A DNA stretch of 63,705 nt, the filler included, from Octopus bimaculoides (taxonomy: Eukaryota): the NCBI RefSeq assembly GCF_001194135.2. It is 5 parts of 5 records of this genome, joined end to end, with 100 filler letters (N's around TTAATTAATTAA, not from the genome) between each part and the next. Parts side by side here need not be neighbours in the genome. Positions count along the whole stretch, not along the records: positions 1 to 22,751 come from NC_068990.1; positions 22,852 to 44,590 come from NC_068986.1; 3 more parts are not named here. The stretch is one strand, 5' to 3'. Under the pieces are notes generated by a model that saw only the letters and a program-made list of their open reading frames with translations, was not told the DNA's origin and made no database searches. This document shows positions 21,425 to 24,031 of the stretch, piece after piece. Position numbers and translations under genes: made by a program. Position 1 is the first letter of the stretch, and each line of letters opens with the position of its first letter.

Positions 21425-21469
21425 ACAGTCTGATGAAAGCTAGCAGGTTGAAACTTTGAAGTCACTATC
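21425..21469 (+). ncRNA. Minimal type-I hammerhead ribozyme motif (Penelope-like), catalytic core intact
   Basis: ACAGT-CUGAUGA(21430-36)-A-AGCT AGCA GGTT-GAAAC(21450-54)-TTTGAA-GUC(21461-63)-ACTAT; stem I 4 of 5 pairs; stem III is quasi-palindromic ACTTTGAAGT. Confidence 0.75.
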
Positions 21470-21700
21470 ACCACTCTCCCTGTAAAAGTATAATAAATTT
21501 GTACTGTGTAAATCATTCAGTAATTCTTCAGGTTTAATGTTAAGCTGTCTTTATTATAACTTGACATAAAAACAAATAAAAACAACTTAACATTAAACCT
21601 GAAGAATTACTGAATGATTTGTAGAGTACAAATTTATTATGTTTTTAGAGGGAGAGTGGTGACAGTGACTTTGAAGTTTCAGCTTGCTAGCTTTCATTAA
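21425..21700. mobile_element. Fold-back element (about 125-130 bp inverted arms, about 19 bp spacer), probably derived from a Penelope-like pseudo-LTR
   Basis: 21430-21555 is the imperfect reverse complement of 21575-21700. Confidence 0.7.
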
Positions 21701-21703
21701 ACT
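21661..21703 (-). ncRNA. Second, inverted copy of the same hammerhead; core decayed to UUAAUGA
   Basis: Minus strand AGT-TTAATGA-A-AGCT AGCA AGCT-GAAAC-TTCAAA-GTC-ACTGTC. Confidence 0.65.
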
Positions 21704-21746
21704 CTGTGTGTGTGCATGCGTGCATGCATGTGTGTATATATAGGAC

Positions 21747-22423
21747 CATCATCATTATTATTTAATGTCCATCCTCCATGCTGGTATGGGATGGATGGAT
21801 GAATGGACTGACAGCATCTGACAAGTCAGAAGATTGTTTCAAACTCCAATGTCTGTTTTATCATCGTTTCTATAGCTACACTACCTTCGTAAAGCCAAGC
21901 ACTTTACAGAGTGTGCTCAATGCTTCTTTTTCTTTCAGTATTTTTCTTTTCTTTGTAACACCAGAACTAGTGAGGTTGCCATGTAATTTGCATGACTAAA
22001 GAGCCTTCTTGACTGAGTGGGACTATAGTAAAGAGGGAGACAACTTTATGTTGTGTGTTGAGAAGTTAATGTATAAAAGACAGGAATTGGGTTTATTGCT
22101 GCAGAAGAAAAAGATAGCTACTCAAATTATATGAGAATGAGTGGGATCAATCAAGGTGAAGCCATCTTCCAGGGTTTCCTTCTTCCACAAACTTTATTCA
22201 CATTAAGCAATTGACACTTCACTATACAGCTTCCCTCATTCATTGCATCACATGGCCATACCAGCACAGTCTTTTCTCTTACACACTACATCTGTTTTTT
22301 CTTATGTGTAACTTTCCTCTTGATACATTTACACTTTGTCATACATGCACACTAACATTGAACATCAAGTGGAGCATTCTAGCTTCAATCCTCTCTAGTC
22401 TTTGCATGTCCTCTGCATTTAGG
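21747..22423 (-). mobile_element. Decayed RTE-type LINE 3' fragment
   Basis: LNAEDMQRLERIEARML on the minus strand (22155-22423); RTE tail at 21747-21900; the sequence between is uncertain. Confidence 0.65.
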
Positions 22424-22751
22424 ATCTATGGTGGTCAATGAGGAAACTTGGGATAGAAGAATGGTTAGTGAGAGCTGTGCGAGCCATGTACAGAAATGCT
22501 GCCAGTAAGGTGAGGGTTGGAAATGAGTACAGTAATGAATTCCGGGTAGAGGTAGGGGTTCACCAAGGTTCCGTCCTCAGCCCCCTCCTATTTATCATAG
22601 TCCTCCAGGCGATCACAGAGGAATTCAAGACAGGTTGCCCCTGGGAGCTCCTCTATGCTGATGACCTTGCACTAATTGCGCAGTCACTATCAGAACTAGA
22701 GGAGAAGTTTCAGGTGTGGAAGCAAGGACTAGAATCGAAGGGCCTTAGAGT
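22424..22751 (+). mobile_element. RTE-clade RT fragment, open frame running into a gap
   Basis: MRKLGIEEWLVRAV...GVHQGSVLSPLLF...YADD. Confidence 0.9.
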
Positions 22752-22795
22752 NNNNNNNNNNNNNNNNNNNNNNNNNNNNNNNNNNNNNNNNNNNN

Positions 22796-22807
22796 TTAAT
22801 TAATTAA
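22796..22807. other. Assembly linker TTAATTAATTAA inside an N-gap (also at 44635-44646, 57404-57415, 62465-62476)
   Basis: Identical six-frame-stop 12-mer centred in about 100-N gaps. Confidence 0.9.
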
Positions 22808-23357
22808 NNNNNNNNNNNNNNNNNNNNNNNNNNNNNNNNNNNNNNNNNNNNCTTATTCTAGGTCATACGAGGGTGATTGCATATTCAGAATCTCCCATAT
22901 GTAAATTGTAGGAATACGAAAATTTATTTACTGAAAAATTGCCGGGGAGGGGGGTAGAAATTCATTGCATGCCCAACCCCGGAATGTGTATGTGTATATG
23001 TGTATGTGTATATGTGTGCTCCTCATGTATACACAGTTTCATTCTTACATAACTAAAATAATTTTAAGATATATTGATTTTATAAATTCCAATATTACTC
23101 CTCTTATAACTTTCTCATTCCTCTGTTAATATTTTATCTAATATGAATAATATAATACATCTAATAATAATAATTATAATAATAATAATAATAATAATTG
23201 ATACATTTGTATGCATATACATGCATTTATGTATGTACATTTAAGTGTAGGTATATGTATTTATGTATATTTATGTATATGTATGTATATGTATGCATAT
23301 GTAAAAGTATGTATATGTGTGAGTATTTATATTTATAACTTAACCTTATGTACTTTC

Positions 23358-23489
23358 TAAAATCTCTGACGAAGCTTAGAGAAACACCCAAGTACCTCAC
23401 TTTCATCTACTAATTACTTCAGTCCACTGGAGGGATAAAAGTAGAATGAGGTATTTTTGCCTCTTGGCTGAAACAGATGCAAGATATTA
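23358..23489 (+). ncRNA. Type-I hammerhead motif with a 97-nt stem II; U16.1->C, probably inactive
   Basis: TAAAATCT-CUGACGA(23366-72)-[AGCTTAGAG...TACCTCA...TGAGGTA...CTCTTGGCT]-GAAAC(23470-74)-AGAT-GCA-AGATATTA; stem I 7 of 8 pairs. Confidence 0.65.
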
Positions 23490-23678
23490 TCCCAATTTCT
23501 ATTGCTCTATGTTATATATTTTAATAATTACTGATATTTCATATATTATATATGTAAAGCATAATATGTCATACATGTATATATATTGTTATAATTGTCC
23601 TTTAAGTAAATAAATTGACATAATATAATGCCTATAAGTTGATGAATACCACCTATTGATCCCCTCCATTTTCTTATT

Positions 23679-23717
<39 letters not shown>

Positions 23718-23845
23718 GCGTATATATATGTGTATGTGTGTGCATAAGTCAGCTAAGAGTCCATAAGTCAGGAAAAAATGCACTCATATATCTGTCAATA
23801 GAGTGAATATATTATCCAAAGTGTAGAGTGTTATATATCTATTAC

Positions 23846-23905
23846 GGCCAGTCTTACCAATCGGTTTCATAATTTGATCATGTAACCCAATGCTCATCAG
23901 AGGTA
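23846..23905 (-). ncRNA. Hammerhead motif of a third family, left arm of a palindrome
   Basis: Minus strand CUGAUGA(23900-23894)-G...U-GAAAC-CGATTG-GUA; stem III ACCGATTGGT is consistent with a CpG-decayed ACCGATCGGT; stem I weak. Confidence 0.55.
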
Positions 23906-23951
23906 CCCGATATGGAATGAAATATGGTACCATATTTCATTCCATATCAGC

Positions 23952-23994
23952 TACCTCTGATGAGCACAGGGTGAACTAATTGATAAGATCAGCC
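23952..23994 (+). ncRNA. Decayed inverted copy of the third hammerhead family
   Basis: CUGAUGA(23957-63) with deleted stem II, GAAC and AUA in place of GAAAC and GUA. Confidence 0.4.
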
Positions 23995-24031
23995 ATAATG
24001 GATATATAATACCATACACTTCGGATACCAC

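Follow-up and report, generated by a model that had tools for sequence, protein, structure and literature searches.

Probable tail-end stubs of Penelope-like elements with minimal, mostly decayed hammerhead motifs in a stretch of Octopus bimaculoides DNA

We have analysed a stretch of 63,705 nucleotides (nt) of Octopus bimaculoides DNA (assembly GCF_001194135.2; five parts joined with filler, hereafter the window), in which an earlier note had reported a cluster of five hammerhead ribozyme motifs between 21425 and 24027. These motifs belong to three separate insertions, here called A, B and C, of which A and B are palindromes showing one hammerhead twice. We consider it quite probable that all three are old 5'-truncated tail ends, i.e., pseudo-long-terminal-repeat (pseudo-LTR) stubs, of Penelope-like elements (PLEs), with minimal hammerheads that are predicted not to cleave here. 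This agrees with the part of the earlier note that had proposed non-autonomous PLE derivatives, in that minimal type I hammerheads of the PLE kind sit on pieces without an open reading frame (ORF), and family A is multicopy with head-to-head inversions. What the stretch holds is for the most part ordinary and of a known type; the unusual details are the rarer tail-to-tail form of A, with the tail as a loop, and the very long stem II of C.

By direct reading of the region 21425-24027, hammerhead-like sequence is present at all five positions, i.e., 21430(+), 21700(-), 23366(+), 23900(-) and 23957(+). The core together with GAAAC occurs 6 times, against 1.12 expected from locally shuffled windows. 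The strict descriptor, satisfied in the window by 21430(+) alone, turned up in 1 of 200 shuffled windows, and under a looser descriptor the sole matches of the real window are 21430 and 23366. When the published hammerhead filter is applied (exact C3-A9, G12-A14, A15.1-U16.1 and H17, with paired bases flanking the core, as worded in the available text of PMC3088659), only 21430(+) passes among the five: 21700(-) fails at C3 and G5, 23957(+) at GAAA, 23366(+) at U16.1, and 23900(-) by mispaired short stems. That is, four of the five motifs are damaged. Moreover, since 21430/21700 and 23900/23957 are the mirror arms of two inverted repeats, the five motifs reduce to three independent units. The earlier count is thus right in its three families, but not in its five independent motifs, because the two palindromes duplicate theirs; palindromic stubs double motif counts in this way, which calls for caution in hammerhead censuses. 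Similarly, the cores had been given as CUGA(U/C)GA...GAAAC: sites are found at all the coordinates, but the core at 21700 reads TTAATGA, that at 23957 has GAAC, and the GAAAC at 23377 has no stems. The short self-complementary stem III holds for A (palindromic) and B (near-palindromic), but not for the reading of 23366(+) with GAAAC at 23377. The three families are mutually unrelated, with 4 of 4 pairwise alignments at or under the shuffle maximum, as had been said of their flanks.

No Rfam model reaches its gathering score in the window, and none of the 28 Rfam matches with E<=10 in 21300-24200 is to a hammerhead model, so that the check proposed along with the earlier note came out negative; the sub-threshold microRNA matches merely reflect hairpins. 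As short fragments, 0 of the 5 motifs fold better than their shuffles (z -0.95 to +1.52). Further occurrences of core plus GAAAC at 2775, 7882 and 31863 have no stems. A possible fourth hammerhead relic lies at 8441-8475(+), with CTGAGGT..GAAAC, a near-palindromic stem III and a UC site; it has no stems I and II and falls under the census threshold.

Element A (21427..21703), found as an inverted repeat, is a tail-to-tail palindrome whose hammerheads stand at the outer ends and read inward. Its arms (21427-21555 and 21575-21703) are 129 nt each, 88% complementary, and separated by a 19-nt spacer. They mismatch at 15 of 129 positions, 13 of which are transitions, and at the centre of stem III one arm has TG while the other has CA, a difference consistent with a decayed CpG. 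Since 7 of 42 positions differ inside the hammerhead as compared with 8 of 87 outside it, the hammerhead motif has not been spared. The left motif (21425..21468, + strand; identified by core and stem matching, shuffles and folding) is a minimal type I hammerhead with a full core, CTGATGA..GAAAC, at 21430-36, followed by an unpaired A, stem II at 21438-49, GAAA at 21450-53 and stem III, CTTTGAAG, at 21454-61. It has a UC site with a predicted cut after 21463, and its stem I consists of 3 bp plus a mismatch. This is the sole motif with an intact core and intact core-adjacent pairs, and as a monomer its hammerhead fold comes to +3.5 kcal/mol. Its palindromic stem III and the base left unpaired between positions 9 and 10.1 are both traits of the minimal hammerhead ribozymes (min-HHRs) of PLEs. 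The right motif (21662..21703, - strand), which the arm alignment identifies as the mirror copy, keeps its stems while its core has decayed to TTAATGA with C3 and G5 changed, and it is predicted to be inactive.

Reads and contigs of two organisms (X2 and X14) were aligned onto 21340-22200 at 80% likeness. With single-copy depths of ~44 (X2) and ~35 (X14), the hammerhead bins of A reach 128-175x and 69-107x single-copy depth, respectively; as summed contig depths these figures are a rough guide and not copy numbers, and A belongs to a multicopy family. Among the letters of this family, the majority C at 21448 (67% of X2 depth) restores stem II of A, and the majority G at 21467 (56%) restores stem I. 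Both arms share three non-majority letters (21478, 21480 and 21544), which indicates one template or subfamily for the two. Both arms also have A-U at 10.1-11.1, while C stands at 11.1 in 35% of X2 depth (21681 G). The centre of A is bridged by an X2 contig with 0 differences and by an X14 contig with 3 differences, and the flank near A in X14 differs by 18 letters and 4 gaps in 457. Since the centre is spanned in both organisms, the tail-to-tail junction is real and predates the split of the two.

Among the joints listed, 12 distinct ones have both ends inside A (26 joints and 19 letter rows lie beyond the listing). We class 9 of these 12 as head-to-head and 1 as a partial direct repeat; another 2 are skips inside A, and the tail-to-tail form is absent among them. 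At three joints the inserted letters form a symmetric palindrome centred just upstream of GAAAC, at stem II. In addition, two other copies start at 21425 and 21428, no more than 3 nt from the point where both arms of A stop, and two copies run on through the spacer, one to 21572 (X14 record 2) and one to 21578 (X2 record 11). Because these copies align through it, the spacer (21556..21574, + strand) is likely the tail of the family, carried in A by the left arm alone. The distance from the cut site is 92 nt to the arm end and 111 nt to the tail end. Overall, family A has what is known from Penelope-like 3' stubs: its copies are numerous, truncated at the 5' side to varying extents and joined in inverted or partial-tandem fashion, and a tail may be present.

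It is improbable that A is instead a hammerhead-tipped miniature inverted-repeat transposable element (MITE), i.e., a fold-back DNA transposon, bounded by terminal inverted repeats of 129 bp, that had picked up a PLE end and was moved as a unit by a Tc1/mariner-type transposase. The left end of A reads TA and then CAGT, which we take to be like Tc1/mariner ends, both arms stop at the same point, and the flanks are TA/TG microsatellite, all of which would suit such an element. Against this, the right end mirrors TA-CAGT only imperfectly, the depth of the family is uneven along the unit (175x dropping to 20x), and the other copies are variably truncated, joined head-to-head, and carry the sequence of a single arm across the spacer. 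Family A thus does not show ends that stay fixed, with terminal inverted repeats and a TA duplication, from copy to copy.

Element B (23813..24027), also found as an inverted repeat, has the head-to-head stub form in its single copy, with hammerheads reading outward. There is no spacer at its centre (23928/23929), and the arms pair over 44 nt at 91% and over 54 nt at 78%. The left relic (23850..23904, - strand; core and stem matching, shuffles and folding), with its core at 23900(-), keeps the core letters, a near-palindromic stem III, CCGATTGG, and a UA site, and its 8-nt stem III is separated from a perfect palindrome only by transitions. Its stem I is of 2 bp, and the 25-nt stem II region barely pairs. 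The right relic (23953..23990, + strand; direct reading and arm alignment), with its core at 23957(+), keeps CTGATGA, while GAAA is reduced to GAAC and stem II has a net 17-nt deletion relative to the mirror arm; it is predicted to be inactive. About 42 nt lie between the cut position and the right arm end. A short direct repeat stands nearby at 23740-23777 (a 10-nt core twice), a 13-nt piece of which recurs in the inserted letters of one family-A joint; this sharing may be chance.

Element C (23362..23485, + strand), recognised by stem matching and shuffled folds, is a single type I hammerhead fold in which stem II is a 97-nt hairpin. While the earlier note used the GAAAC at 23377, the partner of the core at 23366(+), CTGACGA, probably lies at 23470-74, judging from the pairings across stem II (23373-23469), whose closing part is paired at 8 of 9 positions. 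Stem I has 4 bp (ATCT/AGAT) in register, and C replaces U at 16.1 (23480). The downstream hairpin has a z of -3.5 with 0 of 200 shuffles equal to it. C is most likely a decayed hammerhead with a 97-nt stem II, predicted to be weak or inactive as a ribozyme; changes at 15.1/16.1 have been reported to cost at least tenfold in hammerhead activity (PMC3088659). In its minimum-energy fold the core CUG pairs with the CAG of stem III, like a plain hairpin, instead of forming the hammerhead, which counts against activity and leaves room for another reading, namely that C, and perhaps B as well, is just a generic palindrome in decay that resembles a hammerhead by chance. The missing U16.1 also suits this, and under the looser descriptor a score like that of C is reached by chance ~0.05 times per window (60 shuffles). 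We find it unlikely, since the internal loop is exactly ACGA opposite GAAA with the 4-bp stem I in register, a match that a descriptor fitted to C afterwards finds in 0 of 500 shuffles, and since the stem III of B departs from a perfect palindrome by transitions alone. An arrangement of C as a tail-to-tail palindrome like A was rejected in favour of the long stem II (self-alignment score 24, null maximum 34), and kinship between C and A is unsupported (score 31, null maximum 50). By eye, 13 of 15 letters are alike between one family-A joint sequence and the start of C.

Compared with published systems, A, B and C resemble the min-HHRs of PLE pseudo-LTRs (Cervera and de la Pena 2014, PMC4209133) in the type I core and the dispersed copies without an ORF. 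The traits described there include a palindromic stem III, a stem I of few pairs and a base left unpaired ahead of stem II, and both dispersed singles and opposite-strand pairs 100-700 bp apart have been published. Unlike those min-HHRs, C has a stem II of 97 nt against 7-8 bp in Schistosoma, and A-left has A-U rather than G-C at 10.1-11.1. As in PLE insertion units (PMC3846280, PMC8557442, PMC11167929), B and 9 of the 12 listed family-A joints are head-to-head, and there are a junction palindrome, a tail on one arm and an AT- and microsatellite-rich neighbourhood. The tail-to-tail form of A departs from the usual units (Arkhipova et al. 2013, PMC3846280). Its tail, a concept taken from Craig et al. 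(2021, PMC8557442) and Frangieh et al. (2024, PMC11167929), is ~19-23 nt as compared with 30-40 nt in PLE insertion units, and neither an ORF nor a target-site duplication was seen. Non-LTR retrozymes (Cervera and de la Pena 2020, PMC7229834; bioRxiv 10.64898/2026.07.22.740005) are likewise non-coding, PLE-related and equipped with type I hammerheads, but they are arranged as head-to-tail tandem repeats, for which PMC7229834 describes canonical hammerheads and circular RNAs. The motifs here are minimal and decayed, and no tandem hammerhead units occur, the only tandem arrays in 20800-24800 being of microsatellite type; membership among the retrozymes, which the earlier note had raised, thus falls away. 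Each of A, B and C also occurs only once in the window.

The hammerhead-bearing repeat families found here are apparently undescribed, though Repbase, Dfam or paper supplements may hold them. The main text of PMC4209133, in its available part, contains no report of cephalopod min-HHRs, and PLEs have been annotated in Octopus vulgaris in a paper (PMC13282606) whose available text has no occurrence of the word 'ribozyme'. Across the literature searched, largely as partial texts and with Repbase, Dfam and supplements outside the search, no cephalopod PLE hammerhead, actual tail-to-tail stub or 100-nt PLE stem II is described. These families would add to the record of one animal lineage. A metagenome scan for the core and stem III of A gave 19 loci, of which 0 are homologous to 21401-24040 by blastn, and scans of viral contigs for the A and B patterns gave 0 and 0. 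Two of the metagenome contigs (L005 and L012, ~1501-1532) share the motif of core, GAAAC and palindromic stem III, one with an intact CG centre; their stem I is unpaired and they are not homologous to A.

As to how the stubs came about, a PLE protein acting in trans would have copied short 3'-end templates into AT- and microsatellite-rich DNA, the mirror arm being built during insertion. A PLE enzyme has been reported to cut and extend both strands in AT-rich DNA, its own repeat included (PMC11167929), which would lead to head-to-head pairs such as B, the common product. The same enzyme starts internally at two tail-defining sites and does not need hammerhead cleavage in vitro; in the anole Poseidon element the cut lies at 26 nt, and reverse transcription starts 111-118 nt into the ORF (PMC11167929). 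A might be the rarer tail-to-tail product, made when a sense template primes itself from its 3' end and the tail stays behind as a loop, a process that would give an orientation opposed to the usual head-to-head one (PMC3846280). Alternatively, a second copy may have landed inverted in the tail of the first, and later conversion between the arms would also fit the shared letters. C would be a single stub with an enlarged stem II, and all three would have decayed since insertion.

A more specific joint reading, which we hold only tentatively, is that A is a fossil of sense-strand self-priming by a PLE and that C marks a PLE family whose hammerhead has a stem II of ~100 nt. Here a short RNA starting at hammerhead stem I would offer its own 3' tail to the internal start site of the reverse transcriptase (RT), and the product would be a covalent hairpin whose loop is the tail; otherwise the enzyme would snap back on the stem II hairpin, as at the three symmetric head-to-head joints. 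The case bears on the way in which PLEs start reverse transcription and form their inverted ends. If true, a family with a stem II of ~100 nt would escape searches with short-spacer descriptors, and current censuses would undercount PLE hammerheads.

The earlier note had further placed the motifs in a transcribed intron, where, as dimers, they could cleave the pre-mRNA of the host, or else set free hairpin or circular RNAs. This functional reading is very improbable. It is favoured by the full set of core letters in A-left, by the persistence of A in the second organism, and by the domesticated intronic hammerheads known in amniotes (PMC6155905). Nevertheless, four of the five motifs fail the filter, tandem units are absent, motifs on the same strand have no stem III palindrome in common through which dimers could form, and the A arms differ more within the hammerhead than outside it. 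The full palindromes fold at -177/-164 kcal/mol for A and -111/-126 kcal/mol for B, and since both form long hairpins, the motifs are buried. PLE min-HHR monomers showed no in vitro cleavage (PMC4209133), and the anole PLE hammerhead needs protein (PMC11167929). The +3.5 kcal/mol of the monomer, the -111 to -177 kcal/mol of the palindromes, the differing stem IIIs and the inactive min-HHR monomers together make cleavage of a host transcript unlikely. A read-through transcript, if any, would likely be a long RNA hairpin rather than a cleaved or circular RNA.

The coding content and RNA data bear on the same question. In the window we have collected 318 ORF pieces of at least 45 aa (316 through an entropy filter and 2 added). 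Among them no host exon was found, though exons that are short or of low complexity would escape, as would anything in the 5,715 N positions. Pfam cut-offs are passed only by transposon domains, namely three RVT_1 matches, one aspartyl protease and one hAT dimerisation domain. There is no GIY-YIG domain either, so the earlier statement that no Penelope ORF lies nearby holds as far as tested. For RNA we have used two runs from one study, ~6% of each being examined. The depth over the unique flank 22065-22151 is 0 in both, which at this sampling is weak evidence against a transcribed intron, and no pile-ups of read starts or ends occur over A, where 5' ends at the predicted sites had been anticipated. 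Only 7 of 3618 and 14 of 2686 aligned reads are at least 99% alike. At 21433 in the core of A, 43 of 56 and 68 of 78 RNA reads carry an A6-to-C change that appears in one DNA contig per organism, so that most of the RNA over the core comes from one other locus. This change has been reported as one of low activity (PMC3088659). The other locus, a head-to-head family-A copy with the joint 21425/21459, supplies most of the core RNA and carries A6-to-C; its dominance would fit a depletion of active hammerheads from mature RNA, as a single case. RNA editing was considered and dropped, since counts of A>G and T>C places are similar in the RNA and DNA runs.

Several observations weigh against regarding the three units as decayed, non-cleaving PLE stubs. 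The majority letters that restore the stems of A are, among the letter rows listed, single-side changes. B has a stem I of only 2 bp, and what suggests that B and C belong to families is their internal structure alone. The metagenome and viral scans gave no relatives through which any of the families could be tied to a PLE ORF. The core of A-left is intact and, on the + strand, would be transcribed ~200 nt before the antisense arm, and it may take part in trans cleavage with a family copy. The RNA coverage is limited to the ~6% of two runs from one study mentioned above. Finally, three units in 2.6 kb with no other loose-census match in 58 kb amount to some local clustering.

The hotspot that had been proposed is unsupported, though not refuted, by the numbers, which give three insertions rather than five. 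Assuming a 2.4-Gb genome and 10,000 relics, ~108 pairs and 0.6 triples would be expected within 2.6 kb per genome, and ~73 triples with an assumed 50,000. Recognisable min-HHRs number ~2,000 to 9,000 per genome with decayed ones excluded (PMC4209133), and PLEs tend to insert beside earlier copies (PMC6765202).

Between A and C lies an unrelated RT fragment (22423..22751, + strand; RVT_1, E=1.5e-11), which runs into an N gap and has a second copy at 10130-10429. We take it to be non-LTR and RTE-like by its motifs, while the Atlas assigned it to RVT_1 only, with no clade. Elsewhere in the window there are broken pieces of LTR retrotransposons (protease, RT, gag-like) and a 299-aa ORF for the C-terminal part of a hAT transposase, at 27930-29531, 43532-44590 and 62523-63625. 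Inverted repeats of 141 nt at 77% (16756-16895 / 17227-17367) surround a SINE-like piece and are probably an old MITE. A perfect 34-nt palindrome (61093-61126) and a decayed 129-nt one (60930-61058) show no hammerhead core. The 100-nt N gaps at 22752-22851, 44591-44690, 57360-57459 and 62421-62520 are markers and not biology, each consisting of two runs of 44 N that enclose a 12-nt filler, the filler reading TTAATTAATTAA at the first two.

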